Position numbers and translations under genes: made by a program
Notes under the pieces: generated by a model
The model's input: only the letters and a program-made list of their open reading frames with translations
Database searches by the model: none
What the model was told of the DNA's origin: nothing
Assembly: GCA_022508485.1 (NCBI GenBank)
Contig: JAFLVD010000002.1
Span: 18,226-82,225, forward strand
DNA from: Clostridiales bacterium
GTDB taxonomy: Bacteria; Bacillota; Clostridia; Christensenellales; Pumilibacteraceae
Length of the DNA: 64,000 bases
Direction of reading: 5' to 3'
Part shown: positions 1 to 16,000 of the stretch, one piece after another
Layout of the letters: each line of letters starts with the position of its first letter
Numbering within the stretch: the first letter of the stretch is position 1

Positions 1-1288
1 AAGCATTTCCGCCAATAATTTCGCGTATATCTGAATCCTTTAAAGGTCCTACATCTACGGAACAATCGCTTAATTTAGGCATACCACCTTCAAAAAAACG
101 CAATACCTTTTCAGCATCAATTGTTCTACATACAAATATTAATTTGACATTTCCATAGTATATTGCTTCTTTAACTAATTCGCAGCACACTGCAAAAGCA
201 GAAGTTGAATTAGTAACACTCCAACGAATTGCGTCCAACTGATCAATAATTAAATACCCGATACGTTTATTAGCAATCTTTGAAAGCGTTAATATAGGAG
301 AAGCGCTTAAACCAAGTTGTTTCCCAAATTCATGAGCACTCCCATTAGGCATACGAGCATCCAGACTTACAGGCAAATACAATTCGTTTTTCTCATCAAA
401 ATATTCACATAATTGATATACAAGCCCGCTCTTTCCTGCACCGGCTTTGCCATGTATTATGACTACATTCTCATTATCAATTTTCTTTATCAGCTCAGTA
501 AATTCGTTACGTTTATAGCTTTTTTTATTGATTAATTTTCGACTTATATTTATTTTATACTCGCTACATAAGTCATGCATCTGTCTTGTTGCATTGGGTT
601 CATCAATAACATATTTCTTTACACCGTTATCGGACAAATATTTCCATAATTCATCCGCATATATTTCTTGTGATAATTTATTATTTCTTATTGCATAGTG
701 TCTCAGTAATTGAAAAGCCTTATATCCCCCATCAACGGCTTTTATATTATTCTGAAAGTCAATAATAAACTTTTCCAAATCGTCATCAATCATTTTCAAG
801 AAGAATTTCTTATAAAAATGAATGATGTCATCACCATTAAAATATTTTGTAATCTCATTCTCAAGCTTGATGAAATCTTGGGAATTGTCTTTAGTTATAA
901 ATTCCTTTCTAAAATCTACATAACTATTAAATGCAAGAGCGTGACGACACAAGTCTCTTAGAAAAATAAAAGATAATGGCGATACCAAAACATAATTTCT
1001 TCCTTGCGAAATATGATAACAAGCGTTTTTTATAATACCAATACTAATTAGTGTGTCTACACTCCACGAATCGTCATTACCGTGACGAGACTTAACTTGT
1101 ACAACTGTTAATTGATTATCATCGTCACGCAAATATATATCGCCACCTGATTCTAGTGTGCGATTGAAGGATTCAGACATCACGGACAAATATTTGCCAT
1201 CTAACATTTGTCCGTAATAGTGTATTAAAACATTATCTTCATAAAAATTAGAGTTTTTTTCGGCCTCACCGCCGGGTCTATGTGACAT
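1..1288 (-). CDS. Partial CDS (C-terminus lies outside the window). N-terminal Cap4/DUF4297-like PD-(D/E)xK nuclease region fused to a NACHT/STAND-like P-loop NTPase (Avs/NLR-like defence protein).
   Basis: Absent from the ORF track because it runs off the left edge. Hand translation from ATG 1288 (AAGGA SD upstream) gives MSHRPGGEAEKNSNFYEDNV...GGDIYLRDDDNQLTVVQVKSRHG. Walker A IIHGKAGAGKSGL is at 428-451 (about residue 280), followed by a Walker-B-like YLIIDQLDAIRW. The frame stays open to nt 1. Confidence 0.6.
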   Translation of the reverse strand, partial: MSHRPGGEAEKNSNFYEDNVLIHYYGQMLDGKYLSVMSESFNRTLESGGDIYLRDDDNQLTVVQVKSRHGNDDSWSVDTLISIGIIKNACYHISQGRNYVLVSPLSFIFLRDLCRHALAFNSYVDFRKEFITKDNSQDFIKLENEITKYFNGDDIIHFYKKFFLKMIDDDLEKFIIDFQNNIKAVDGGYKAFQLLRHYAIRNNKLSQEIYADELWKYLSDNGVKKYVIDEPNATRQMHDLCSEYKINISRKLINKKSYKRNEFTELIKKIDNENVVIIHGKAGAGKSGLVYQLCEYFDEKNELYLPVSLDARMPNGSAHEFGKQLGLSASPILTLSKIANKRIGYLIIDQLDAIRWSVTNSTSAFAVCCELVKEAIYYGNVKLIFVCRTIDAEKVLRFFEGGMPKLSDCSVDVGPLKDSDIREIIGGNA

Positions 1289-1496
1289 ATTATAATTCCT
1301 TTTCGTTTGTTAAAACAATTAAACAAAAATCTTGCTCATCGTGAAGTTTTACGGATGTCTACGATCGTATTTTACGATTATCAGAAAGTATAGAATAATT
1401 TATATTAATTATAACATAATTCTATATTTTTTCAAAGCTGTTTAAATATAAATAAAGAGTTTTAAACTGCGCTTATATGGCTTCATCTTAAAGTTT

Positions 1497-3023
1497 TTAT
1501 ATAACCACACCGGGTATTCCCAATATTTTTATTTTTTCCTCATGTAATAACCTAATTCTTTTAAGGCTATTCCTGACAATATTGATTATAGACTTATAGT
1601 AATTGGATTCTTCAACTGTTCTGTGAACTTTAAACATATTTAGAATAGCTTCCAATATAAACATCAAACATATATCTGCACCAAAAATAACTCCGTTTGT
1701 TTCGCCCCATGCACCACTATTGGCATACCACATATATCCATTTGCATGAGAGAGCATTTGACTCTCCATGTAATTCAAAAGCATATTTCTATCCCATGAA
1801 ACTTCAGCATTAGGATCGACAAACTTTTTTATAAAATCTCTCACAAGGCTTGTAAAATTATTTACCTTCCCCTTCTCATCTATTGTATAACCACATGTCG
1901 ATATAAATGTTTGTTCAAATGCTGTTTGTTCTATACCATTCGGATAAAGCGCTTTATATAATCCGTAAGCATTATCTATTGAGTATTTTTCCCCTATGTT
2001 GCGACTTAATTGAATTCGCTCATGCTCTTCTAACAATTTAAAACGCTCTTCATGTGGGAAATAAGTGATATAACATTTGTAAAAACATGAAAACATATCT
2101 AACACTATTTTCCATTTTGACTTAACTTGTTCGCATAATCCAAGGAGTTTATCAGAACAAACTTCACTCATAAGAAGATTTATAGACATTAGAGTATCTG
2201 ACACATAGTTCTTATTGAAATATTTCTCGAAAACTTTGCTTATATCAATTAAAATTTTGCATTCTTGTCTTACTATATCTTCATATGCGCGAGCAATTTC
2301 TGATGAATATATAGTTGCACTAAAACTATTAAAAGTCAATTCAGCCACAGGTAGTGAATTATACTCTTCTATCATAAGAAGTAACATATTGGGTATTGTT
2401 CCCCATATGCCTTCATTCATATAAAAATCATTTACAGAAGGATGTATTGCTTGGCTATAAATACCATATAATTGTGCATAGTCCTCTCCCAAGTTTTCTC
2501 CAATTAATTTCCTATAATTTGCACTAGGGTCACAAAGGAAAGGCTTATTCGTTTTCAATATTGCGGCTATTTGTTTTTCACTATATGTTTCTGATAATTC
2601 TTCTTGGAAAAACTTTACTGCATCATCTTTGTCTTTTTCTAATTTTTCTGGAATCAATATTTTATCGGCAATATCGTCAAATTCTTTGTAATAATTATAT
2701 TCAATTATAAAGACCTGCTTATGTAATAATTTAACTTGTATATCACTTATTTTTCCTTTTTCATACATGCGTTTTAAGGCCAATCCCTCAAGAAAGCAAC
2801 GCGCAGTAAGCAACATACCAGGACTGCCTATATGCGACAAAAGGATATCTTTGATAAAGCATTGTGCCTGAGATGTTAAATAGAAATCTATCACATCGAT
2901 AAACGACTCAGAACCAAATTGCGCTTCATCCTCTGATCGTTTCATAAGGGCATGATTATAAGTAAACAATCTGCCCCAAAGCGAATTAAGTTGATTTAAA
3001 AATTCTTTTTCTTGAAAGTCCAT
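1497..3023 (-). CDS. Hypothetical 508-aa protein, third gene of the SIR2-HerA operon. I recognise no motif in it.
   Basis: The ORF-track start at 3047 is TTG. The first ATG is at 3023, 8 nt after the HerA stop (TAG 3032-3034). Same strand and same AT-rich composition as SIR2 and HerA. Confidence 0.7.
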   Translation of the reverse strand: MDFQEKEFLNQLNSLWGRLFTYNHALMKRSEDEAQFGSESFIDVIDFYLTSQAQCFIKDILLSHIGSPGMLLTARCFLEGLALKRMYEKGKISDIQVKLLHKQVFIIEYNYYKEFDDIADKILIPEKLEKDKDDAVKFFQEELSETYSEKQIAAILKTNKPFLCDPSANYRKLIGENLGEDYAQLYGIYSQAIHPSVNDFYMNEGIWGTIPNMLLLMIEEYNSLPVAELTFNSFSATIYSSEIARAYEDIVRQECKILIDISKVFEKYFNKNYVSDTLMSINLLMSEVCSDKLLGLCEQVKSKWKIVLDMFSCFYKCYITYFPHEERFKLLEEHERIQLSRNIGEKYSIDNAYGLYKALYPNGIEQTAFEQTFISTCGYTIDEKGKVNNFTSLVRDFIKKFVDPNAEVSWDRNMLLNYMESQMLSHANGYMWYANSGAWGETNGVIFGADICLMFILEAILNMFKVHRTVEESNYYKSIINIVRNSLKRIRLLHEEKIKILGIPGVVI

Positions 3024-3031
3024 TTGAGTAG

Positions 3032-4804
3032 CTATTTCAATCCCCAAATATCGATTAAATTCACATTATCACTATTCGGTGCAACTGTTTTATCTAAACA
3101 ATCAATTTTTGCCAGTAAAGGAAAATTAGCAGCAATACCAGAAAACAAACAACCTCCAGCAGGCAAAATTGGAATCATGTTATTAGAAACTGAATCAGAG
3201 AAAGCAACCGATTTATAAATACGCTTTAAATCTTCAGTATTTACTAGGCGGTGAACAAAAAAGTTATGCAACTGTGATATTATTGTTTCTGAAATATCAG
3301 ACGGTCTTTGGCTAGCAATTGTCAAAAATACACCAAATTTTCTTCCCTCTTTAATAATTTCTTCAAAAGTTTCTAATCGTGTGCTCTTCCACTCCTCACT
3401 CTCGCGCGCAGAACCATAAGATAAAATATTATGTGCCTCCTCAATTATTAAATGGAGAGACGATTGCAATCGATCATTTCCACGATGTTTTTTGTGTTTT
3501 TCGTATTTGTCCTTACAAATTATATAAGTCGCTAACTTCTTCATTTCTGCATTTAAATTAAACAAAGATATTACAACAACATGTTCATTCGGACAATTAT
3601 CACTCCTAAATTCAAATATTTTTCCCAGCTCACATATTATTTTATCCATACGATTAAATAATTGAATAATATATTGAGCTGAAATCTTCCCTTTTATTAA
3701 CTCTTTACAATACGTATAGTAAACAATTAAAGAAAAAATTTGTAAATCATTCAGATGCCTTAACGAAACAACGCTATTTTCCATGTTATCAAACAATTCG
3801 ATATACGTCGTAATATAATCCAACTCCCCACGAGTATTGCTTACAAGTTTTTTATATTCAATACTTATATTGTCATCAAAGGATATAATCTCATCTTCAA
3901 ATCCTAGACTTGTAAAAATATGAATTATGAATGCCCTAATTTCCCCATAATTTTTTGAGCTTTCCAAAACTAAATCGCTTAATTTTTGAGTCGTAAAATA
4001 ATCATTGGACTGTTTACATTCTTTATAATTTTTAATACATTCGTTGATAAACGGTTTTTGTGTTTTTTCAGAAGCTTGTAGTACTACCGACCAAAATTCA
4101 ATATCTGTTAAATATCTCTCATCTAATGGATATTTTTCATTTGTGGCAGAGTTTAATTCATAATAATGTCCATTAGGAAATGTTTTTCTATATTCTCCGT
4201 TTAAGTCAAAGAAAACAAACGACGAATTATTTTTAAATTGTTGATTATTCGAATATACTTCAAATAGTTCAGTATATATCTTTGCCAAAGTATTTGACTT
4301 ACCACTTCCGGTATTCCCAAATATTCCGATATGACTGCATATCAATTCTTGTAAATCCAATTTAAACGGATAATTATCATATTCAATTAAAGTACCTAAA
4401 TTTAATGTAAACTTCGAATGATGATCCAATATTTTTTTTTGTAATACCTCATCAATAATGTATACAAAATTACCAATTAACGGAAGTTCAATAACACCGA
4501 ATACAAATTGTTCGTTTTCTAAATGTCCCAAAATCGACACATCCAACGTTCTTGCTATGCCACGCCCTTTTTCCGCATAGCCACTCTCTAAAGGCGTAGC
4601 AGTTATAAACTCCCCATCTACTTTCCCTATTATATTCAAAAACCCTTTTCTAATAATGATAAAACTACCTATGCCTACATTTTTAATAGGCATGCCATCA
4701 TAATTTAAATATTCAACATTTTTCTCGCTATAAATACCAACTTTGATCTTATGTCCATATACTTCTCGCACTTCACCAATTTTCAATAATTCATTCAATA
4801 TCAT
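3032..4804 (-). CDS. herA: HerA-like (FtsK/HerA clade) P-loop ATPase, partner of SIR2.
   Basis: Walker A IGIFGNTGSGKSNTL; Walker B LHLIIEEAHN; GRKFGVFLTIASQRPSDISETIISQLHNFFVHRL. ATG 4804 follows an AAGGAG SD and overlaps the SIR2 3' end by 14 nt. Confidence 0.85.
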   Translation of the reverse strand: MILNELLKIGEVREVYGHKIKVGIYSEKNVEYLNYDGMPIKNVGIGSFIIIRKGFLNIIGKVDGEFITATPLESGYAEKGRGIARTLDVSILGHLENEQFVFGVIELPLIGNFVYIIDEVLQKKILDHHSKFTLNLGTLIEYDNYPFKLDLQELICSHIGIFGNTGSGKSNTLAKIYTELFEVYSNNQQFKNNSSFVFFDLNGEYRKTFPNGHYYELNSATNEKYPLDERYLTDIEFWSVVLQASEKTQKPFINECIKNYKECKQSNDYFTTQKLSDLVLESSKNYGEIRAFIIHIFTSLGFEDEIISFDDNISIEYKKLVSNTRGELDYITTYIELFDNMENSVVSLRHLNDLQIFSLIVYYTYCKELIKGKISAQYIIQLFNRMDKIICELGKIFEFRSDNCPNEHVVVISLFNLNAEMKKLATYIICKDKYEKHKKHRGNDRLQSSLHLIIEEAHNILSYGSARESEEWKSTRLETFEEIIKEGRKFGVFLTIASQRPSDISETIISQLHNFFVHRLVNTEDLKRIYKSVAFSDSVSNNMIPILPAGGCLFSGIAANFPLLAKIDCLDKTVAPNSDNVNLIDIWGLK

Positions 4805-5789
4805 TATCAATCTCCTTAAAAAACTGCGATACTTTTTCAATATTGCATTCGCTATTATTACGCAAAACAACTACATTGTGATATCTATTAAATTTCTCTT
4901 TATATGAATCTTCATCCCATTTTCTAAAGGCAAATATAACTACAGTTAAAGTAGGATTAAGTAAAGCTCTTTCTACTATTGTTCTTATATGTTCATCGTT
5001 AAACGAAAAACCATATACGAGTAATAAAGAATTCCTTTGCTCAAGTTCATTCCCAAATATTCTTAATTGATCATAATAGTTCGCATTTAAAACTGTTGTG
5101 TTAAATTTTTCTTTATTGGGATTAATAATCAAAAACTCTTTTTCATAAACTTGCATAAACTCATCATCATTTTCCAAACATTCTTTAACTCTCTCAATCT
5201 TTTTTAAACAATTTTCATAAGTTATGCCTACGTCCGTTTGCGTCCAATTCAAAGATCCATGTAATTTTAATAAATTTGCGGTGACTATTTCTGTTGATTT
5301 ATGCGCTAAAGCGCTTGTCTTTTTTATAACTCTTCCAAAATTAGTCGTAGAATACAATGGATTAAGGCGTCCAGAAAACCCATCTGAATATTCTATTCTG
5401 TTACACTCCAATGATTGTTCTATAAGCACATCATAATTAGTGGTAAAAATGTTAAACATTTTATGCAAAACCGAACTATGCCGTTTGTCTAATATATTTT
5501 TAATTGAATTTAAAAAATAATCTCGATATTTTTTATTAGCGTCTAACTTTTCTTGATAAAGAATCGGTAAAATGCTATTATTAAAAAATTCTTTTTCCAA
5601 TATAATCTTTTGTCTTATATCACCATTATCAATAGCTCTTGTTAATCGTTCTTCAAAATCATCTAAAACTTTTAAAAACGGCATACTAAATCCAGCACCC
5701 AACAATAAACTTATATTGTTAGATGAAAGACATTTTATCAAATATGATTTCACAACTTGCCGTTGCTCTTCTATATTATAAATTCTCAT
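4791..5789 (-). CDS. SIR2-family (SIR2_2-type) NADase-like protein.
   Basis: LLLGAGFSMP (GAGxS), IFTTNYDVLIE (TTNYD) and LLKLHGSLNW motifs. ATG 5789 follows an AAGGAG SD. The upstream part of the track ORF overlaps the XRE gene. Confidence 0.85.
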   Translation of the reverse strand: MRIYNIEEQRQVVKSYLIKCLSSNNISLLLGAGFSMPFLKVLDDFEERLTRAIDNGDIRQKIILEKEFFNNSILPILYQEKLDANKKYRDYFLNSIKNILDKRHSSVLHKMFNIFTTNYDVLIEQSLECNRIEYSDGFSGRLNPLYSTTNFGRVIKKTSALAHKSTEIVTANLLKLHGSLNWTQTDVGITYENCLKKIERVKECLENDDEFMQVYEKEFLIINPNKEKFNTTVLNANYYDQLRIFGNELEQRNSLLLVYGFSFNDEHIRTIVERALLNPTLTVVIFAFRKWDEDSYKEKFNRYHNVVVLRNNSECNIEKVSQFFKEIDNDIE

Positions 5790-5817
5790 CAAAAATCTCC
5801 TTAAAAACAAATAAGTG

Positions 5818-6060
5818 TTAATCAATCTCCAAGTCGGGATTCTCAAAAATTGGATCATCAAAGAATTGAGCAGCTGTCATACCAAGTCCACGGACAATCT
5901 GCATAACCGTTTTAAGATTTACACTCTTGTTCCTTTCGCCCATTAATGTTTTCATTGTGTTATGCGGCATAGCTATATCTCGCTCAAGTCGATACTGCGA
6001 CATACCCTTTTCACCCAATATGTTGCTTATTCTTAACGCTACTGCTGTACTTAATTTCAT
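5818..6060 (-). CDS. XRE-family helix-turn-helix transcriptional regulator (80 aa).
   Basis: LGEKGMSQYRLERDIAMPHNTMKTLMGERNKSVNLKTVMQIVRGLGMT is a typical Cro/C1 HTH. ATG 6060 has a GAGG SD. It lies 28 nt upstream of SIR2 on the same strand. Confidence 0.85.
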   Translation of the reverse strand: MKLSTAVALRISNILGEKGMSQYRLERDIAMPHNTMKTLMGERNKSVNLKTVMQIVRGLGMTAAQFFDDPIFENPDLEID

Positions 6061-6070
6061 ACTTGCCTCT

Positions 6071-6191
6071 ATGGTTGTAATTACAACTCCATTGTATCAA
6101 AAAAAATTTTTACTGTAAGGACATAATTACAACCATAAATGATTGTATTTATCATTCATTACTGCTATAATATGGTTGTAATTGCAACCAT
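6071..6191. promoter_or_regulatory. Divergent control region with three copies of an ATGGTTGTAA/TTACAACCAT operator-like palindrome, plus a candidate plus-strand promoter.
   Basis: Site 1 is 6071-6088 (core GTTGTAATTACAAC is a perfect 14-bp palindrome). Site 2 is a half-site, TTACAACCAT, at 6127-6136. Site 3 is 6172-6191, ATGGTTGTAATTGCAACCAT (19/20 palindromic). Candidate promoter: -35 TTGTAT at 6143-6148, 17-nt spacer, -10 TATAAT at 6166-6171, abutting site 3. Confidence 0.5.
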
Positions 6192-6204
6192 AGAGAGAGT
6201 AGTA

Positions 6205-6636
6205 ATGAAAATATGCTGTGCGTCAGGTAATCGTCCACACAAGTTTCCATGGGAGTACGGCGAAGAAAAAGAACATGAAAAATGCCTCGCAGATTTAGCA
6301 AGACAGATTGAAGAACTAATAAGATACGGCCATACATATTTCATATCAGGTGGCGCGCTCGACGTAGATCAGGACTTCGCGGAAACTGTACTTCGTGCAA
6401 AGAAAATACGCACAAATATCAAGCTTAAAATTGCAGTTTCTTGCAAAAAACAAGATGAACGTTGGAGTGAATCCGACAAGTCCCGGTATATAACCATTAT
6501 TGATAAAGCTGACAAAGTAACTTTCCTATCTGAGCATTACACACGATACTGTATGCAAAAACGCAACGAATACATGGTAGATAAATCAAATCTCAATCTA
6601 GTTTATTGGAACGGCGAAGAAAAAGGCAGTACATGA
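6205..6636 (+). CDS. DUF1273 / YpsA-like SLOG-superfamily protein (143 aa).
   Basis: From ATG 6205: MKICCASGNRPHKFPW...YFISGGALDVDQDFAETVL...IAVSCKKQDERW. This parallels the B. subtilis YpsA layout (GYKP...ISGQLGVE...). The track start at 6139 lies upstream of the predicted promoter. Confidence 0.65.
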   Translation: MKICCASGNRPHKFPWEYGEEKEHEKCLADLARQIEELIRYGHTYFISGGALDVDQDFAETVLRAKKIRTNIKLKIAVSCKKQDERWSESDKSRYITIIDKADKVTFLSEHYTRYCMQKRNEYMVDKSNLNLVYWNGEEKGST

Positions 6637-6801
6637 TATACGATGAAGTACGCAAATAGAAAACAAAAATTTTTGATAATTAAATCACATAGCAAATTAT
6701 AAAAAAAGCAAAATTATTTAGAGTTGCAATAAACTTTTCCTACAATTGAATAATACCCTTTCCTCTTCTAAAACACAAATTTGTCTATTCTTAATTTACA
6801 T

Positions 6802-6842
6802 AATCGTGATTTGTAAATCGTGATTTGCTAAATTACGATTTG
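6802..6842 (+). repeat. Three tandem iteron-like direct repeats (period 14-15 nt).
   Basis: AATCGTGATTTG at 6802-6813, AATCGTGATTTG at 6816-6827 and AATTACGATTTG at 6831-6842, all in non-coding DNA. Confidence 0.7.
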
Positions 6843-6866
6843 CAAAAATATGTTCAACTGCTGAGT

Positions 6867-6897
6867 GACTAATCTCGATTCAGATTCGAGATTAGTC
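6867..6897. repeat. Perfect 12-bp inverted repeat (hairpin) with a 7-nt loop.
   Basis: GACTAATCTCGA-ttcagat-TCGAGATTAGTC. An extremely AT-rich stretch follows (6915-6970). Confidence 0.75.
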
Positions 6898-7369
6898 GCA
6901 GTGAGTTAGAATTTACTCGCCCATATTTAATTATAATGATATATGTATTTTAAATATAAATATATATCGTTTTTTACGCGTAAAAGGACTGGAAGTCCGT
7001 CATTAAAACACAAACTCCCCAATCAGTAAGTAATCGGGGAGATTGTGGGGCGTGGGGATTTGAGGGTCTGTCAAAAAGCGCAAGATATAGTATCTAATAT
7101 ATCATCTATATACAATATTTTGTATTTTTCGCTTTTACCCTCTTCCTCTGACTCCGTCACTTCGAAAGGTTGAAGAGTTTCGCCTGCTGCTAACACTATA
7201 TCTGCCGCGAATCAGAATTTTCTACTAAAACATATAGTATTTAGTTTTTGGGGAATAAATTTGGCAGTAAATTTGGGAGAGACTCCACAATTTTCTCTCA
7301 ACTCACCCTGAAACCAAAATTATATGCAACCGTTTTCATTAACAAAAGCTTCCATAGTCAGTAATATTG

Positions 7370-7915
7370 CTATATGTTATCTCCGTTTGCTACCATAATC
7401 ATTCCGACATTCACCTCTACTGATTTACTATCGTTTTGGTTAAACCAATCTTCTATGCAATCTTTATACCGGTCGGTTAAGCAAATTATACGCTGATTTG
7501 CCGAACCGAGAATGCGCCTTTTACTCTCCGCTTTGTCGGCAATATATGCGCCGTCCAGCACGACGTCGCAGCCGCGCAAAATATCTTTGACTTCGTCGTA
7601 AAGCCTGCCTGTAAAAGATATTACGCCCAGTCCGAGATTATGGATTGCTTCGGTGAGATGAGGTAAGTTTTGCTGTAGAGTAGGCTCTCCACCCGAATAT
7701 GTCACACCATCTATCCCGAACTCGTCTTTTGCTTCGGCGATGATTTTAACAAGCTCATCAAGAGTTAAAAGATTTTTCGGCACAAGCGGTTGATAGTCTG
7801 GATTACAACATCCTTTGCAATGAATATTGCAGCCCTGAAACCAAATGCACAACCTCTTGTACGGGCCTTCTACTTCGGTACACCGATTGATGCTTGCAAT
7901 ATTAAACTTAATCAT
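7370..7915 (-). CDS. NrdG / activating-enzyme-like radical-SAM protein (181 aa), last gene of the eight-gene operon.
   Basis: EVEGPYKRLCIWFQGCNIHCKGCCNP (CxxxCxxC cluster) and GVTYSGGEPTLQ (GGEP SAM motif). ATG 7915 overlaps the stop of the upstream ATPase gene by 8 nt. The track start at 7927 is TTG. Confidence 0.8.
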   Translation of the reverse strand: MIKFNIASINRCTEVEGPYKRLCIWFQGCNIHCKGCCNPDYQPLVPKNLLTLDELVKIIAEAKDEFGIDGVTYSGGEPTLQQNLPHLTEAIHNLGLGVISFTGRLYDEVKDILRGCDVVLDGAYIADKAESKRRILGSANQRIICLTDRYKDCIEDWFNQNDSKSVEVNVGMIMVANGDNI

Positions 7916-9740
7916 TGTCAAATTCAAAATGCAGCTTATCTTTCACTACACTTACAACTATTTTTGCACCTCTGAACGATAACAAATCTTGCTTATTTTC
8001 AAACATAAACATAGCGAGCTCGTCCAAAAGCTTATCATTGATTGCATTGAGTATATCGCGACCGCCCTTACTGCTATCTGTTCCTCCTAAAATATAATTG
8101 ATGAATTTTAACTCGTCGGCGAATTCCAAATCTATACGGTATTTTTCGGCGATTGCGCGTTGTACGGGACGAAGCTTGGAGCGCGCAATCTTTACGCTGA
8201 ACTCTTTATCTTTGATAAAGTTGAATGGAACGATATTGCTGTATCCGATACGCCCTAAAATTTCGGGACGCTTGATTTCGTTGTCAAAATAGTTCTTTAC
8301 AATCTTGATAAACTCTTCGGCTATCTCTTCGTTAGATCCGCTCGACGACACTTCCGAAGCGCCGAGATTGGATGTGAATATTATGACGCTTTCGCTGAAA
8401 TAAACCGTTTCGCCTTTGCTATCGGTCAAACGCCCGTCTTCGAGGATTTGCAGAAAAATGTCCAATATGCGCGGATTGGGTTTTGCCGCCTTTTCAATCT
8501 CGTCAAACAGTATAATACTGAACGGTTTTTCCTTAACGGCATTTGTCAGTTGTCCGCCCTCTTCATAGCCTACATATCCCGGAGGCGCGCCGATAAGCTT
8601 TTGGTCGCTGTTCTCCTGCGCATACTCGGACATATCAAAGCGAATACAAGCCTGCTCGTCTCCGAACAGGAATTTTGCAAGGGCTTTGCTGAGCTCGGTT
8701 TTACCCACGCCAGTAGGTCCGACAAAGAACAGCACACCTTTGGGCGCGGAACGACTGGACGATTTGTGAATTCCTGTCAATCCCATATATGCCTTAACTA
8801 CGACTTTTTCTATCTTCTCGATAGCTTCGTCTTGCCCGACCACGCGCTCGGAAAGAATCTTTTTAATGTTCTTTACTGCTTTATAGTCAAGCTTTTCCCA
8901 AGGATTGTCTTTCTCTCCGTACTTAAACAGAAGATATAATTGTTCAAACGGCATTTTACCTTCTTTGCGAGAAAGCCTGGCAAGCTGAATAATCTCACGA
9001 TTTGTAAAATCGTCGAGCATATCGATATACTCGTTCTTTTTATCGCAGGTCATAAGCGTTTCGCCCGGCTTTAGCTTTACTTCAAAACCGCTCTCGATCT
9101 TTTCCATCATTTTTTCGCGTTCTTCTCTATCCGGTTTGGAAAGCGTCAGGCAAGACACTTCGGCATTGCTCTGATAGAAAGAAATCGGAAACATAGCAAG
9201 TTTGCTTGTTACAAGCACAATTGTACTCTCGTTTACTTCCGAGGAAAGATAATCGACTTTTTTATCTTTTATGGCTTTGCCGAGAAGAGTCAATAGCTCG
9301 CGCTCGTCCGGCGGCAACACGCCGCCCGTCGAAAACAAATAGTCCGCCCAGTTCAACACAAACGCCGTTTTGCGATTGGGCTTTTTTAAGTTTTTAAATA
9401 TAATATTGAAAATCTCGGCAGTATCCTTAAAAAGTCCGCTGCCCGTTTTTTCTTCTTTTTTGGTATCTTCGTCGTCGTCAAACGAATATGCGTCGCCCTC
9501 TATCTCCACCTCGTCTATGACGGAAAGTCGAGATATATCACCGTCCACGCCGTCGATGCGATCCCAATACAGCACATCGTCAAAATCCATGGACTTCAGC
9601 ATATCCATAAGATATTGCTTTAAATCGACGATTTGCTTCTTTTCGTTGAGATAAACATCGCCAACATTACCCTCGACTATTACGCATCTTTTGATGCCTA
9701 TTTCGCGTCTTAATCTGTTAAATGTAGTGATAAGTGCCAT
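7908..9740 (-). CDS. ClpA/ClpB D2-like AAA+ ATPase with a degenerate N-terminal AAA-like half (610 aa).
   Basis: VVGQDEAIEKI; Walker A FFVGPTGVGKTELSKALA; GAPPGYVGYEEGG; Walker B SIILFDEIEKA; sensor-1 VIIFTSNLG. The N-terminal half has only VIVEGNVGDVY and FVLNWADY in place of Walker A and B. AAGGAG SD before ATG 9740. Confidence 0.8.
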   Translation of the reverse strand: MALITTFNRLRREIGIKRCVIVEGNVGDVYLNEKKQIVDLKQYLMDMLKSMDFDDVLYWDRIDGVDGDISRLSVIDEVEIEGDAYSFDDDEDTKKEEKTGSGLFKDTAEIFNIIFKNLKKPNRKTAFVLNWADYLFSTGGVLPPDERELLTLLGKAIKDKKVDYLSSEVNESTIVLVTSKLAMFPISFYQSNAEVSCLTLSKPDREEREKMMEKIESGFEVKLKPGETLMTCDKKNEYIDMLDDFTNREIIQLARLSRKEGKMPFEQLYLLFKYGEKDNPWEKLDYKAVKNIKKILSERVVGQDEAIEKIEKVVVKAYMGLTGIHKSSSRSAPKGVLFFVGPTGVGKTELSKALAKFLFGDEQACIRFDMSEYAQENSDQKLIGAPPGYVGYEEGGQLTNAVKEKPFSIILFDEIEKAAKPNPRILDIFLQILEDGRLTDSKGETVYFSESVIIFTSNLGASEVSSSGSNEEIAEEFIKIVKNYFDNEIKRPEILGRIGYSNIVPFNFIKDKEFSVKIARSKLRPVQRAIAEKYRIDLEFADELKFINYILGGTDSSKGGRDILNAINDKLLDELAMFMFENKQDLLSFRGAKIVVSVVKDKLHFEFDND

Positions 9741-9751
9741 TATCAGTCTCC

Positions 9752-10864
9752 TTATTTCTTATTTTTGTTGGTGTTTGTTGCTTGATATTTCATCGTAGCA
9801 ATTTTATCGGGATTGCTCCAAATTTCTGTCTGTTTGGTAACGCGAATGCCGTACACTTCTTCCAAATCGTGCATAAACGGCTCAATATCCTTTTGGCAAG
9901 CCTGACCTTCATATCCGTGAAAATCGTAAATAAATCTGCCATCGAGGAAAATTCGAAACTCTGCTTTCTCTCCGCTCGCCTTTAAAGCGACTAAAATCAC
10001 TTCGTTTGTATCGCGTTTGATTTTTATGTTCTTCTTATCTACAATAAATCCGCGCTGCTTAATCGCATCCATGATAATTTTAAGAGATTTTTGCCGAACC
10101 TTTTCGCCGACAATTTCGGCCGTAGCGCTCCGGCGCATTGCCGCAAGCTTTTCGCGAGCCGTGCCTTGAGCCCCCTCTGTCACTTTTCCAAGCGTTTCCG
10201 GCGCCACTCGAGACGCTTCCAATTCGGCGCGAATTTTGGCGCGTTCCTCTTCGTAACGGGTCTCATAAGTTTGATTTACTGTTTGCTCCATAAGCTGCTT
10301 GCCGGCCTTAATGAGAGCATCACCGATAAGCGTATTATCGCGAATGTATGCAAGAAATGCAAACTGCCGCAAAACCTCGTCGCTTATCCCACCCAACACG
10401 GCTCGTGTGCGCGAATCGACGGTTACCACTCCGCTGTTCTGCTCGCGCAATTTGCGTTGATAATCCCCTATACTATCTTTAAGCAGCGCTTCAAGCAAGC
10501 TTTCGAATTCCATCAACCGTTGCGACGCGAGAGTATCGACTTTTTGCTGTAATTGCTCCGCTGCCCTGATAGTGTCATTACGGTGCGCGTAGCGTGCTTC
10601 CATGTCGTCCATTCGCACCGAGCCCTTTTTAGCGTCGGTTTCCGCTTTTTTGCTCACATCGTTAATTTGATTGTCAAGCAAACTACGTTCCTGTCTAATT
10701 ACATCGGCAAGCTGTTGAACTTGCTCTGTTGCAATACGAGACGAAGATGCCTCTATCCTTGCAATCATGTCGTCCAATTCTTGCAGTCTTACCCTTGCAA
10801 CTTCGCAAACACTATTGCATTGAATAGCTATTTGCTGATAATCTACTTGAACCTGCCGACTCAT
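9752..10864 (-). CDS. Coiled-coil protein (370 aa) with a small C-terminal alpha/beta domain. Function unknown.
   Basis: ATG 10864 forms an ATGA overlap with the stop of the upstream gene. It is rich in long heptad-like E/Q/R/L segments (RLQELDDMIARIEASS..., EERAKIRAELEAS...). The track start at 10900 is less likely. Confidence 0.65.
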   Translation of the reverse strand: MSRQVQVDYQQIAIQCNSVCEVARVRLQELDDMIARIEASSSRIATEQVQQLADVIRQERSLLDNQINDVSKKAETDAKKGSVRMDDMEARYAHRNDTIRAAEQLQQKVDTLASQRLMEFESLLEALLKDSIGDYQRKLREQNSGVVTVDSRTRAVLGGISDEVLRQFAFLAYIRDNTLIGDALIKAGKQLMEQTVNQTYETRYEEERAKIRAELEASRVAPETLGKVTEGAQGTAREKLAAMRRSATAEIVGEKVRQKSLKIIMDAIKQRGFIVDKKNIKIKRDTNEVILVALKASGEKAEFRIFLDGRFIYDFHGYEGQACQKDIEPFMHDLEEVYGIRVTKQTEIWSNPDKIATMKYQATNTNKNKK

Positions 10865-13059
10865 TTCAATCCTCCTACCATAAATACTAAATCGCGCCAT
10901 TTTTCTATCGTGGCCTTATCGAAAGGTATCTGTGCGGCTCCCGGATGTTGGAATCCGTTTCTGCACTTACGAAGGATGTGCAAGTCGTCGGCCTGCGGTT
11001 TTGTGATAAGCTTTTTGCTTAGTGCGTCGTTTATGGTGTCGTTGACAGGCGTCGACTTGTCTAACTGCAATTTTTTGCACAAATCGTATTGCAATCTTAT
11101 AAGCAAATCGCAAACTGCGTCCTTATATTTGCCCCTGGAAATAAAATCGTTTATGTACTTTTCGGTTATATTTTCGGGATGGAACGCCGCCGTCCGCTCG
11201 ATAGACAAAAGCTCGTGTATAGGCTTGAATATTGCAAGGTAACGATCGTACTTTTCGTATTCATTACCCGCAAACTGCCTGTATTTTTGTATCGTTTTCG
11301 AAGTGTTTAAGAGCGTTCCGTAGGCGTTGAAAAACGCGTCGTTGTTGTAGTCGTCCTTTAACGTATATTCGGCGCTGTTTGTGACACCGAGCATATCGCA
11401 CAGCTTCCACAGATTAACCCGAACTGTCTTATACTTACTTGCAAGCTCGGTGTCGGAATTGATCGACGTGTTTTCCAGCACGGCATTCATAAACGTTTCT
11501 ATCACATTGGCAACCGAAAGAATTTCCATCTCCATATCGGGCAATGCCGAATTAAGCGCCTCGTATGCGATCTCGCGCGTTTCGGTTTTGCAAATATTAT
11601 CCGAAAATCTGCGCACGTATTCGATATTCGGGATTCTCAGAGCCGTTTTAAGCGGCATCAAAACCGTGTTTTTGTAAATGACGTTTTCTACCTTAACCTC
11701 GCTTACGCTTCTGTTGTACAGCTCAGTTGCAGCCTTTGCAAAATATTCAGTCCAAGGCTGATGATTTTTGAACGCCGAATTAATCTTTAACAGCAGCTCT
11801 GTTTGCTCGTCCGCCGTTTTAACCGACTTAAGCTTTTTGTCTATAAATTTTCCGAAGTATTCGGCGCCTAAACAGTCTGCGACATAGGTGACTATACGCC
11901 CTACCTCGTCGTCAAACGGCTTTTCGCAATATTGATCGTACAGGCTTTCGACAATTCCTCTAAAAATTTCATCATCAGCCTTGCTTTCTATCAAAAGCGG
12001 CAAAGTAAATGTGTCGCCAAAGTTTTTGCACGACATAGCCATGTTGACCGCACTAAACGCTCTGCATCCCGACTTATCCAAAAGCGCACAATACGCGTGT
12101 TCATCGATTTCATCCAAAAGTCGGCAAGAGAGATCTAAATCAGCACAAATAGCGTCGTTACGATCCACCGCCGTCCCTCTCTGTAAAAACACAACACATG
12201 GGCGCTTTGCTTGCTTAGACAAATCTTCGGGTAGATATAACGCCGTCAAATTGGACACGGTCGCAATACCCACCGTCGGAATGCGGCCTACGGACTCTGG
12301 AAATTTAAATTTGTTTTTCATTACCATTCCGCTTTCCATGATAGCGGACGAATAGTACTTATCGAAAAACGCCCTTTCCGCAGTGGTTGCAAAAGTAAAC
12401 TCTATGTGCGAAGGATATATATTTAGGGTGATATTCTCTTCCGAACGAACGTGCATTTTTTGCGGAGGATCTGTCTCGAATGAAATCATGCGTTCCTCCG
12501 CCTTTAACCCCACCTTAGTAGGATTTACGTTGAGATAATCCCCTAAGCCGCTTATGTCTATATCCACATGGTCCAAAAACTCCTCGCCCAAAAAACAGTT
12601 TGCAATCGGAGAGTATGTCATGTCGGAGTACACATCAAAGCGATTAGTTACAGGGCTGTAAAAAATATCCTTAGCCTTTTCCTTTTCCACGCCTGTGGGG
12701 ATTGCCCCCTCGCTGAACAGCTTTTTGCCTTTTGGTGTAATGGCGACCTCGTTCAGCTTGATTTCCGCAAAATACTTTGGATTGGAAAAATGCGACGCCG
12801 CATACTTGGATTTTACTATTTCGGTATTGATAAGCCCCTCTAACTCCCTGCCGAAAAGGCTGTGGAGCTCGGTGGGTATGCCGAATTTTTTCAACGCCTC
12901 GGAAAAACGCATATCGGACTTTTGCTTGTCTATAAGCTCGAGCAAGATGTAGGCTATACCGGAGGCCTTGCGCACCTCGTTATACTTGATGCGCGTCTTG
13001 TAAATCAACAGCGGAAAAGGACATTGCGTTTTTATCTGCTTTATTAACTTCTCTTCCAT
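10861..13059 (-). CDS. 732-aa protein with a C-terminal HEPN-like domain (putative RNase effector).
   Basis: The C-terminus reads ...DDLHILRKCRNGFQHPGAAQIPF.... RNGFQH is an Rx4H motif encoded at 10945-10962, checked codon by codon. An AGGAGG SD sits inside the 3' end of the helicase gene, with a 1-nt gap to the helicase stop. Confidence 0.55.
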   Translation of the reverse strand: MEEKLIKQIKTQCPFPLLIYKTRIKYNEVRKASGIAYILLELIDKQKSDMRFSEALKKFGIPTELHSLFGRELEGLINTEIVKSKYAASHFSNPKYFAEIKLNEVAITPKGKKLFSEGAIPTGVEKEKAKDIFYSPVTNRFDVYSDMTYSPIANCFLGEEFLDHVDIDISGLGDYLNVNPTKVGLKAEERMISFETDPPQKMHVRSEENITLNIYPSHIEFTFATTAERAFFDKYYSSAIMESGMVMKNKFKFPESVGRIPTVGIATVSNLTALYLPEDLSKQAKRPCVVFLQRGTAVDRNDAICADLDLSCRLLDEIDEHAYCALLDKSGCRAFSAVNMAMSCKNFGDTFTLPLLIESKADDEIFRGIVESLYDQYCEKPFDDEVGRIVTYVADCLGAEYFGKFIDKKLKSVKTADEQTELLLKINSAFKNHQPWTEYFAKAATELYNRSVSEVKVENVIYKNTVLMPLKTALRIPNIEYVRRFSDNICKTETREIAYEALNSALPDMEMEILSVANVIETFMNAVLENTSINSDTELASKYKTVRVNLWKLCDMLGVTNSAEYTLKDDYNNDAFFNAYGTLLNTSKTIQKYRQFAGNEYEKYDRYLAIFKPIHELLSIERTAAFHPENITEKYINDFISRGKYKDAVCDLLIRLQYDLCKKLQLDKSTPVNDTINDALSKKLITKPQADDLHILRKCRNGFQHPGAAQIPFDKATIEKWRDLVFMVGGLK

Positions 13060-13060
13060 A

Positions 13061-16000
13061 CTACTTTCCTCCTATGGTGTCGCGCATGGGAATGATATCT
13101 CGTGCCGGAATTATTTTTCCCTTAAAATCTATCGTTGAAATAATTTCTTTGTAGACGTGGAAATTAAGTTTGCCAGCACCGCACCCGTCCATATCCGGTA
13201 AATCGATTATGCCGTAATCGGACAAGAATTTTCTGGCTCCAACTACAATAAGCAGCTTGCGCGCCCGAGACAGCGCCACGTTGATGCGCTCGAACTTTTT
13301 AAGAAATTCCAGGTCGAATTTCTTTCCGGGTGCAGGGTTTCTGACCATGGAGAGAATTATGATATCTCGCTCGTCGCCTTGAAAGTCGTCAACTGTGCTT
13401 ATTACCAGTTTTTCGTCTTGCTTGCCCGAAAAGTTGCCGAACTGCTTATTTTTGCGTTTTTTCTTAATAAGAGAAGCCTGGTCGCCGTATGTACAAATTA
13501 CGCCCACGCTCGGCCGCTCATCTATGCGCCGATCCTTGTTTACTTTGATTTTGCCTGTCCTAATAAGCTCTCCGCTTGCCGCATCAATTTGCCGCAAAAG
13601 CTCGATTGCAACCTGTGCTTCCTGCTCGTTGGACTTGGATGTGCTGCCATCGTCGGCGCTGGATTCCCTTTCGTCGCAATCGACAAAGTAAATGTGATGC
13701 TCGGGATCGATAACGGTATTGCCGTTGATGCGGACTGTAAGGTTGTGCTGCTTTTCGTTGTCTTGTTGCGGAAATCCCACTTGCAAGCCTTTTTGACTAC
13801 CGCCGTAAAAATGGTTGAAAACCTCCATTATGTGGCTGTGGCAACGGTATTGCTTGTTGAGCATGACCTTAAAGTCATCGGGTACTTCCTCGTAAAGTTT
13901 CTTAAAGAAGCACTCTTCGTATAATTCGGTGTACTTTTTGTTGATACTTTGATTGATAATGTCGTCGTTCAACCCCTCAAAGTCTTCTTCTCTCATGTGG
14001 CGCAAATCGTACATGGGCGGCAGCTGTCTGTGGTCGCCCACAAGGATGACCGTTTCCCCGTACAAAATGGGAATGAGCAAATCGAGGAAAGAGGACTTGG
14101 ACACCTCGTCGATAATGACCACATCAATCCCTTGCGTGCGTATGTTTACATCCTCTATGCCGTACCGACCGAGCTCTTCTAACTGCTGTCTCGTAAATCT
14201 GTCGCGACTGGTGCAGGTAATACCGAACACATTAGCCTTATCGTACAGAGCGCGAGTGTACTCTTGTCTGTCCTCGTCCAAGATTTCTTGCTGCGCAAGA
14301 TATTTGCATATTCCACGGTACATCGGAATTTTTACTGCGTTTTCTGCTTGCGTGGATTTATAGTCGCGTTCCAACTTTTTCCACTCGTCTGCAATAATGG
14401 AGAACGCCTTTCCCATATCGTTCGGATCGTACTCACACACAATATCAAAGTCTTGCATAAACCGCGAAACGCTCTGCTTTAATGCGGAATTAAGCTCAGA
14501 ATATTCCACAAGCGTTTGATCCTCGCCAAGATCCTCAAGCTTTTGTTTCAGTTTGTTGATGTTTATCTGTTTTTCTCTTATGTCGCTATCCAGCCGGTCT
14601 TGCTGCGCGAGGATAGATTTCATGTCCTCTTCTATTCTGTCCTTAATCTCGCTTACAGTGCGCTGCACTTCTATTTTGAATGCCGTTAACTCGTCGGGCA
14701 GCTTTTTAAGCTTATCTTTATCTCCGGCGATTTGCGGAAGAACGGAAAACACGACGGTATCCGAAATGTCGAACTTGCTTGTCTCCTGCGCCCGACGCAA
14801 TTCGCCTGCAACAGACATCAATTCTTTTTGATATTTTTTATATTGCTCAAAATAATCGTCACCTTCCGTTGGCGGCTCGTCCGTTTCGGGGTCGCGCAGT
14901 TCGGAAAGAATTTCCTTTAGCTCTCGTTGTCTGTTTTTAAGCCTAATCGTTTTATCATTGTCATCGGACAACAGTGCGGCAAGTTCTTGCTTTACAGCGT
15001 TCACATCCAATTTGATTAGCTCACCCACCTTTTCCTTGGACAGCTTGTTAAAGCAAGAATATTTTTTGAGTAAAAAATCGATTGCGTCCGCAAAATCTGT
15101 TAAGTACTGCTCTTTGACGTCTTCTCCGGCAAAGCGGTATGTTTCGATATATTTAATCGTACGCCTAAACTGCTCTATCTCGTCACACACAACGGATAAT
15201 TCCCCACGCAAGTTATCTAGCATTTCATTAAGCTTATTTATATCTGCGGAAACGGAGCGCATCTCCTTTTGCACCTGTGCGACCTGTCCTTCCAATCTCA
15301 AAACCCTATCGTAGTCAAGGCGCAGTTTTTTCATCATTTCGCCAAAGGTTGCCTTTGTTTCCTCAAAATGTTCAAACCTATCCACCTGTTTTTCCAGATT
15401 GCGGCTGATATTAAGATAGAAATTATCCACCAATCTTTCAGGGCTGTAATTTGTTTCTTTGCCGTTTTGTGACGGAATAAGCCTAAGCGGTCGTATTTCC
15501 GGTATTTTAGGTAGCCTTTCAAACACATTGTCGATTGCCTTATGCGTTTCGGAGGAAACCAACACCTTTTTGCCGCGCTTACACAGCTGTGCGGCTATCT
15601 CGGCTATAACCTGCGTCTTTCCGGTGCCGGGCGGACCCTGCAAGAGAAAGATACTCTCGCTCGCGAGCGCCTTTTGTACGGCGAGTTTTTGCCTGTCGTT
15701 AAGACTTTCCAAGCACCAATCTATATCGTCCGCCGTCCTCTTTGTACTGCCGAGCGATTTAGCATCAAATAGATATGCCGGCAAATACGGATTCTTTACA
15801 TAACCGCCCATAAATGCGACGAGCGCACGCTCCTGCCTTTCTATCTTAGTCCGCTCAGCGCGACTGTCGTATGTAAGATAATGCGCATCTACTGTAGCTA
15901 TTTCCTTTCTAAGTCCGGAAAGAGTTTTGTTGCTGTCATCCGGACGGAAGTAAACACTGTAGCGGCGTATAGTTTCATTTTCGATTTTTACGGCTATTTC

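Follow-up and report, generated by a model that had tools for sequence, protein, structure and literature searches.

The 64,000-nucleotide (nt) stretch of contig JAFLVD010000002.1 analysed here, referred to as the window, originates from a Clostridiales bacterium and carries a compact array of four genes on its minus strand. In the direction of transcription, these encode an 80-amino acid (aa) XRE-family helix-turn-helix (HTH) protein (5818..6060; Pfam HTH_26, E 1.2e-8), a SIR2 NADase of 332 aa (4791..5789; start MRIYN...; Pfam SIR2_2, E 1.5e-14), a HerA ATPase of 590 aa (3032..4804; start MILNELL...; Pfam DUF87, E 3.6e-21) and a 508-aa protein of an unannotated, all-helical family, termed G3 (1497..3023; start MDFQEKE...). 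According to the coordinates of the open reading frames (ORFs), the SIR2 gene starts 28 nt after the stop codon of the XRE gene, the SIR2 and HerA ORFs overlap by 14 nt, and the ATG of G3 follows the HerA stop codon after 8 nt. A preliminary description of this DNA had given the same four ORFs and the same spacing, and had read them as a SIR2-HerA (Nezha-type) defence operon that is extended by an upstream XRE regulator and by G3 as a conserved third component, which would make it a new variant of the system. The identity of the pair and the standing of G3 and of the XRE gene beside it are the subject of this analysis.

The SIR2 and HerA proteins match the respective PADLOC models over their full length, with E 7.9e-64 for SIR2 (PDLC04080, residues 12-319) and E 1.1e-136 for HerA (PDLC04097, residues 5-588). 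All motifs quoted in the preliminary description are found in the translations, namely GAGFS, TTNYD and LHGS in SIR2 as well as Walker A (GNTGSGKS), Walker B (EEAH) and SQRPSD in HerA. With the SIR2 NADase motifs in place and a Walker-motif HerA ATPase directly adjoining SIR2, the locus is, by the sequence-level definition, a SIR2-HerA (Nezha-type) two-gene anti-phage system. The cutoffs of the NCBIfam equivalog models were not reached, neither by SIR2 (SIR2_antiphage NF042942, 102.8 vs 500 bits) nor by HerA (HerA_antiphage NF042943/NF042944, 135.2/114.6 vs 850/800 bits). With scores so far under these cutoffs, the pair is a divergent Firmicutes branch of SIR2-HerA outside the equivalog clade. 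As the pair agrees with the sequence-level definition, it can be regarded as a new but divergent member of the known SIR2-HerA systems.

Published SIR2-HerA/Nezha systems have been described as consisting of two genes (PMC11472057, PMC11514289), and a third component is not mentioned in a 2026 classification of types I-III from E. coli (PMC13434337). SIR2 and HerA assemble into one large complex, in which phage proteins trigger the nickase/ATPase activity of HerA and the NADase activity of SIR2, leading to NAD+ depletion (PMC11472057, PMC11514289). For the pair in the window, a phage trigger would likewise activate the SIR2-HerA complex and cause NAD+ depletion and abortive infection. The pair resembles the systems from Paenibacillus, E. 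coli (types I-III) and V. cholerae (PMC11472057, PMC11514289, PMC13434337, PMC11559045) in the overlap of a SIR2_2 NADase gene with a HerA/DUF87 ATPase gene, in the full-length matches to both PADLOC models and in the retained catalytic and Walker motifs. It differs from them as a divergent Firmicutes sub-family far under the equivalog cutoffs, by a lineage-specific XRE gene with putative palindromic operators upstream, and by an unrelated gene, G3, downstream.

From the XRE gene to the end of G3, a site scan revealed no terminator-like or minus-strand promoter-like site. As this includes the junction between HerA and G3, G3 is most likely co-transcribed with SIR2-HerA here; it probably shares their transcript, on which it would ride. 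The composition of the DNA does not strengthen this connection. G3 has the same AT-rich composition as the pair, as had been noted before, with a GC content of 0.27-0.34 over window positions 1500-6000. However, AT-richness is equal across the whole stretch from about 500 to about 7000, and this stretch includes the next, separately promoted gene, so that composition is no tie of G3 to SIR2-HerA. The latter gene encodes a STAND-type NTPase, the 5' part of which lies at 1..1288 on the minus strand (nSTAND3, E 5e-6; read from the translation), and it is preceded by a strong promoter-like site at 1435->1408 (TTGAAA-16-TATAAT, 11/12 positions matching).

The genomic contexts of G3 relatives argue against a specific connection with the pair. 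When one genome per GTDB species was scanned, 23 G3 loci were obtained, in metagenome-assembled genomes of Clostridia, Christensenellales and Bacilli and in single contigs labelled as Prevotellaceae and Lachnospiraceae. With the window HerA as tblastn query, nothing was found in any of these 23 loci, and with the window SIR2 only a weak match was obtained in two of them, to another, stand-alone SIR2 gene. A metagenome scan added 72 loci, and 107 G3-encoding loci were available overall. When these were screened with a hidden Markov model (HMM) built from 31 HerA sequences, HerA was detected in only two (L026 and L027), both of which had been retrieved through HerA and are 93-95% identical to the window at the nucleotide level. 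On a larger scale, at least 7837 relatives of HerA (E <= 1e-30) stand against 253 clusters of G3 at 50% identity. Thus, the expected co-occurrence of G3 with SIR2-HerA (or DUF4297-HerA) was not observed across genomes, and G3 is decisively found independently of the pair.

The genes upstream of G3 were compared in 83 informative loci, in which the 5' end of G3 is kept and at least 1.5 kilobases (kb) of upstream sequence are present. They fall into 35 unrelated clusters, of which SIR2-HerA is one. In the genome scan, the upstream neighbors are RhuM/PDC-S05, DUF2971/PDC-S31 (twice), a stand-alone SIR2_2 protein, a trypsin-like protease, AAA_21, an RNase III-like protein and one protein without Pfam match. 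Further neighbors comprise Hachiman HamB, SoFic, AbiLii/RloB, a metallophosphatase, DUF2971/PDC-S31, a NERD-type helicase, PDC-S39, PDC-S49, a DdmD-like protein and the HsdR subunit of type I restriction-modification (R-M) systems, which precedes G3 by 8 nt. Of ten further representatives of upstream neighbors, eight match PADLOC models, and within two genes on either side of G3 there are matches to type I R-M, SoFic, DdmD, PDC-S04, PDC-S31 and others. A gene on the same strand ends at most 100 nt before G3 in 43 of the 83 loci. In about half of the loci, it has an upstream spacer of at least 190 nt or a divergent neighbor, which indicates that G3 can have its own promoter.

When the ORFs located within 4 kb of G3 were all clustered against each other, no hidden partner that is conserved across the G3 tree emerged. 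The largest clusters consist of DUF2971-like proteins and of an ORF of 163-176 aa that is confined to a sub-clade with 31-35% identity to the window protein. In L086-L095 and L107, this ORF stands directly before G3, at a distance of 40-97 nt, and it does so in two lineages whose copies are only 38% identical to each other, and a relative of it precedes an HsdR-G3 arrangement in L074 (1799-2299). It has no match in Pfam, PADLOC or among PDB sequences and may be a partner of G3 specific to this most distant sub-clade. In addition, an unusually long RNase III-like protein of 327-358 aa, with an RNase III domain as well as Dicer-dimerisation-like and dsRBD regions, is encoded near G3 in four loci (L011:2231-3220, L016:325-1401, L020:2407-3390 and L013:15638-16693), in three of them about 200 nt upstream.

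A natural exchange of the genes upstream of G3 can be seen in the closest relative of the window protein (P0001, 97% aa identity), which is encoded on a 441-kb contig (L025). There, G3 follows PDC-S01, a DdmD-like protein of 1148 aa and a 578-aa protein, and is itself followed by a STAND NTPase of 1489 aa. Window positions 1-3023 are 98.4% identical to L025 at the nucleotide level, and the alignment ends exactly at the ATG of G3. Beyond this point, homology is found again only in a non-coding piece of 370 bp at window positions 6794-7162, which corresponds to L025 positions 809-1177 with 89% identity. This break indicates that the XRE, SIR2 and HerA genes and a divergent 165-aa gene (3024-6793) form one exchangeable cassette, and that G3 and the STAND gene belong to its conserved flank. 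In the proposed scenario, the block of XRE, SIR2, HerA and the divergent gene, which encodes a YpsA/SLOG-family protein, would be exchanged as a unit within an AT-rich defence island. On L025, the STAND NTPase gene (9736-14205; weak match to PDC-M54A) is followed by an HTH_26 gene and a SEFIR/TIR_2 gene.

The non-coding segment at 6794..7162 marks the far end of the cassette. It is also 82.5% identical to L026, and the genes on both sides of it differ despite its conservation. An RNA gene or tRNA serving as integration site was considered for this segment and discarded, as no Rfam or tRNA match was found in it. It contains a terminator-like hairpin on the minus strand (7041-7015), and the GC content climbs from about 0.30 to 0.43. 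Possibly, the segment is the boundary of a mobile AT-rich island.

Closer relatives of the pair document both the presence and the loss of G3. In L026 and L027 (97% aa identity), the order XRE-SIR2-HerA-G3 is the same as in the window. In L028 and L029 (88% aa and 84% nt identity), the SIR2 and HerA ORFs and their motifs are intact, and both the XRE gene and G3 are missing. The first 26 nt of a G3 gene (ATGGATTTTAACGCAAAAGAATTTAT, reading MDFNAKEFI) remain 9 nt after the HerA stop codon in these loci and are followed by unrelated sequence; judged from this remnant, G3 was a neighbor of this SIR2-HerA clade over some period before its loss. In Lachnospira eligens (L030-L033), SIR2-HerA proteins with 48% aa identity are encoded in the order NUDIX-SIR2-HerA-KAP NTPase, with the KAP gene 26 nt downstream, and this HerA protein is present on 630 contigs. 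SIR2-HerA shows no visible damage from the loss of G3, and G3 persists elsewhere without the pair. Both observations speak against G3 being an obligatory partner, and in particular against the antitoxin-like brake that had been considered, although as natural variation this evidence is indirect.

Rearrangements at the 5' end of G3 appear to be frequent. Pseudogenes and deletion chimeras of G3 are common (L009, L012, L021 and L022; P0081 and P0098), and P0081 and P0098 are in-frame chimeras in which the N-terminus of an upstream NERD-helicase or KAP NTPase is fused to the C-terminal half of G3. Remnants of the 3' ends of RhuM or DUF2971 genes lie directly before intact copies of G3 in L003, L046, L056 and L072. 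A shared junction motif was not seen upstream of G3. Decay of G3 together with such upstream remnants is the kind of turnover that is typical of defence islands.

The G3 protein has no match in PADLOC, NCBIfam or PHROGs. Its sole Pfam match is a sub-threshold one to DUF5677 (PF18928; residues 109-201, E 6.8e-4, 20.2 bits vs a cutoff of 27.1), which agrees with the initial impression that it carries no recognizable motif. DUF5677 is matched at E <= 0.01 by 7 of 41 family members. The similarity is weak, covers less than one fifth of the protein and does not link G3 to a large superfamily; the G3 family itself is sharply bounded. Relatives of G3 number 133 in a protein database clustered at 90%, all of them unannotated and about 500-520 aa long, and when 1.84 billion representatives were searched exhaustively with an HMM, only the 253 clusters (50% identity) were obtained at E <= 1e-3. 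Matches to complete proteins are mostly full-length with 500-560 aa, and shorter entries look like fragments. Since nearly all matches are full-length, the unit of about 510 aa seems to be the functional module. A few distant members (P0276, P0285 and P0252) have at their N-terminus either a SEC-C zinc motif (GRNDPCPCGSGKKYKKCC) or an extension of about 135 aa with an HExxH motif.

An AlphaFold2 model calculated from a 41-sequence alignment is all-helical and confident, with a predicted local distance difference test score (pLDDT) of 93.4 and a predicted template modelling score (pTM) of 0.93. A Foldseek comparison of the full model with the PDB and BFVD gave no meaningful match; the best hits, with E of about 0.15 and template modelling scores of at most 0.2, were generic helical or membrane proteins. 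Residues 1-228 modelled alone (pLDDT 88) have no fold match in the PDB, and comparison of the sequence profile with PDB chains returned only noise (EB3, E 0.2). G3 belongs to no described family and is structurally an orphan.

Across 58 members with identities down to 17%, the residues R75, E79, Y112, Y186, S190, H194 and P195, in the middle of the protein D291, E298, K303, K305, E309 and F369, and in the C-terminal part Y418, E420, S425, H426 and Y430 are invariant or at least 90% conserved. Polar residues that are kept across distant members are expected of a catalytic or ligand-binding site. Each half of the protein contains a helix that ends in a conserved histidine with a tyrosine eight residues earlier (Y186...S190...H194-P and Y418.E420...S425-H426). 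The two similar helical halves that had been suspected initially, with reservation, do not hold up, as alignment of the N half with the C half by hhalign gave a probability of 0.8% and paired other segments. A HEPN RNase such as AbiV was also rejected, since there is no conserved arginine 5-7 residues before H194 or H426 and thus no Rx4-6H motif, there is no HEPN Pfam match, and neither the whole protein nor its N-terminal domain has a fold match. Readings of the histidine motifs as Fic or HD-like were discarded as well, as the protein lacks the motifs that define them and matches no model.

The XRE protein exceeds the Pfam cutoff for HTH_26 (35.5 vs 22 bits) and thus contains an XRE/Cro-C1 HTH domain, as had been stated before; weak PADLOC matches are to PDC-M64C and 'Control_protein'. 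The gene is 96% identical in L026 and L027 and absent from L028 and L029, and in this 88% relative of the pair homology to the window stops 13 nt upstream of the SIR2 start. Therefore, the XRE gene is a lineage-specific addition to the pair. It was suggested to be part of an extended system, and its putative operators are plausible in this lineage, but it is not conserved with the pair.

The 144-bp region between the XRE gene and the divergent YpsA/SLOG-family gene (6139..6636, plus strand; Pfam YpsA, E 1.2e-16) contains a 22-bp palindrome of the type TATGGTTGTAATTACAACCATA in three copies between 6070 and 6192, which were found as repeat families D1 and I1-I4. In the first copy (6070-6091) the left half is perfect, the second (6116-6137) is a half-site with a perfect right half, and the third (6171-6192) is nearly perfect. 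With up to three mismatches, two matches were found where 0.04 were expected by chance, and no further match exists elsewhere in the window. The core of the palindrome is kept in L026 and L027 only. A minus-strand promoter-like site (6119->6091, CTTACA-17-TACAAT with TG) abuts the first copy, a plus-strand site is located at 6126->6155, and in both directions the promoter-like sites touch or overlap palindrome copies. With three palindromes over divergent promoters, the XRE protein looks like a genuine local repressor, and the palindromes can be considered putative XRE operators in the layout of a Cro/C-protein-type switch.

Accordingly placed sites would allow the XRE protein, which is likely an autorepressor of the SIR2-HerA(-G3) operon and a repressor of the YpsA gene, to hold both the toxic operon and the divergent gene at a low level. 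Like the C-protein/XRE-type controllers of R-M and other defence operons, it is a small HTH protein encoded first in its operon, with palindromic sites that overlap its own promoter and with the weak PADLOC matches mentioned above; unlike with these controllers, the putative operators also cover the divergent YpsA/SLOG gene. The latter probably starts at the ATG at 6205. It lies within the window-specific segment 3024-6793, is present in L026 and not in L025, and is missing beside the 88% relative of SIR2-HerA. The ligands predicted for SLOG domains are of the nucleotide or ADP-ribose type, which makes a link of this gene to the SIR2 NADase conceivable.

With good though not full confidence, the locus is interpreted as a canonical two-gene SIR2-HerA system with a small XRE repressor, next to which G3 is an autonomous defence-island gene and not a component. 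In gut Firmicutes, members of the G3 family would lodge in defence islands, frequently as the final gene and tightly appended behind a resident defence operon. G3 is a candidate defence gene only by guilt by association. Our best guess for its function is a stand-alone anti-phage or anti-mobile-element protein, the conserved polar residues of which might constitute the catalytic or ligand-binding site.

Several observations weigh against this interpretation. As read from the alignment, there is no Shine-Dalgarno-like sequence just upstream of the G3 ATG, which lies only 8 nt after the HerA stop codon; lacking a ribosome-binding or promoter-like site of its own, G3 would depend on the SIR2-HerA operon for its expression here. 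The remnant in L028 shows that the adjacency is older than the split within the SIR2-HerA clade at 84% nt identity. Moreover, a second sub-clade of G3 is located 15-16 nt behind a different, stand-alone SIR2 protein, so that a SIR2-related functional link is still conceivable. Finally, the only family hint for G3 is the sub-threshold one to DUF5677, a domain that was reported to be enriched on defence contigs and whose sole ORF tested for defence was not among the active candidates (PMC12632615).

Alternatively, G3 could be a portable, promoter-less accessory or guard module that settles at the 3' ends of many defence operons and acts with or behind them. As a guard, it might be a co-expressed back-up effector, possibly firing when phages inhibit the front-line system, in analogy to PrrC for EcoprrI. 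This would fit the close same-strand position downstream of a defence gene in 43 of 83 loci, representing about 18 clusters, with gaps to the upstream gene that include 0-3, 8, 9, 11 and 15-16 nt. Further points in its favor are the frequent position of G3 at the ends of type I R-M operons and beside RhuM or DUF2971 genes, the breakpoints between loci at or within about 27 nt of the G3 start codon, and the persisting remnants of former upstream genes before G3. In gut Firmicutes, G3 occupies defence islands and the 3' ends of type I R-M operons, a habitat that it shares with PrrC/RloC and the PADLOC families PDC-S05 (RhuM), PDC-S31 (DUF2971), PDC-S39 and PDC-S49, which it often adjoins. However, it matches none of their models and has no ATPase or recognizable nuclease domain. 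About half of the loci, with a long spacer or a divergent neighbor, do not agree with a promoter-less module, the partners have unrelated chemistries, and gene-dense islands give tight spacing by default. In addition, the upstream partner differs even between G3 copies that are 97% identical, and thus there is no sign of partner-specific co-evolution. Both the accessory role and its guard variant are therefore unlikely.

That G3 is an autonomous defence gene could also be questioned from the opposite side, in that it might have no defence role at all and be a selfish or unrelated passenger of mobile AT-rich islands, for example in island maintenance, with an incidental defence neighborhood. 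The lack of any match to a defence model, the frequent pseudogenes and deletion chimeras and the inactivity of the only tested DUF5677 ORF (PMC12632615) point in this direction. In contrast, across 35 contexts the great majority of G3 neighbors are established or candidate defence genes, no integrase or transposase recurs as a partner, and defence genes, too, typically undergo decay and turnover. G3 was not found in IMG/VR contigs, 50,697 phage records or 72,556 plasmids, and an origin from a mobile element was rejected on these grounds. A passenger without defence role is quite unlikely.

The proposal that G3 is a specific third component of SIR2-HerA, as trigger sensor, brake or second effector, is very improbable: the 8-nt spacing with probable co-transcription, the identical arrangement in L026 and L027, the ancestral adjacency in this clade and the second SIR2-G3 pairing speak for it, but HerA accompanies G3 solely in the two near-identical loci, HerA relatives far outnumber the G3 clusters, the 88% relative has kept its ORFs and motifs after losing G3, which argues against an essential brake, and a 97%-identical G3 has a different partner.

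Beyond the AT-rich island, further genes of possible defence function are encoded on the minus strand of the window. At 7370-9740, just outside the island, a 185-aa radical-SAM activase-like gene (Fer4_12, weak pVip matches) overlaps the end of a 610-aa ClpB-like AAA_2 gene, which matches PADLOC PDC-M37B (E 5e-33) and DolB (E 5e-20); from these matches, the two genes look like a candidate defence pair. At 9752-17692, three large genes in a row, for proteins of 382 aa and 732 aa without Pfam match and for a 1543-aa SF1 helicase (AAA_11, AAA_12), may constitute a further defence-type operon.

As a three-gene variant of SIR2-HerA does not appear to be real, the locus makes no addition to the catalogue of SIR2-HerA architectures. 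It does provide a clean natural cassette swap, in which one slot of a defence island is taken by either SIR2-HerA or a DdmD-like pair, with the breakpoints at a gene start, and a candidate XRE switch with defined putative operators for a toxic NADase operon. On the unlikely reading as a portable back-up or guard module, G3 would found a new kind of defence module that is encoded behind many unrelated operons, namely SIR2-HerA, SIR2, type I R-M, Hachiman, RhuM, DUF2971, Fic and DdmD-like ones. More probably, G3 represents a structurally orphan family that consistently resides in defence islands of uncultured gut Firmicutes, and with its specific conserved residues it is a reasonable single-gene defence candidate.

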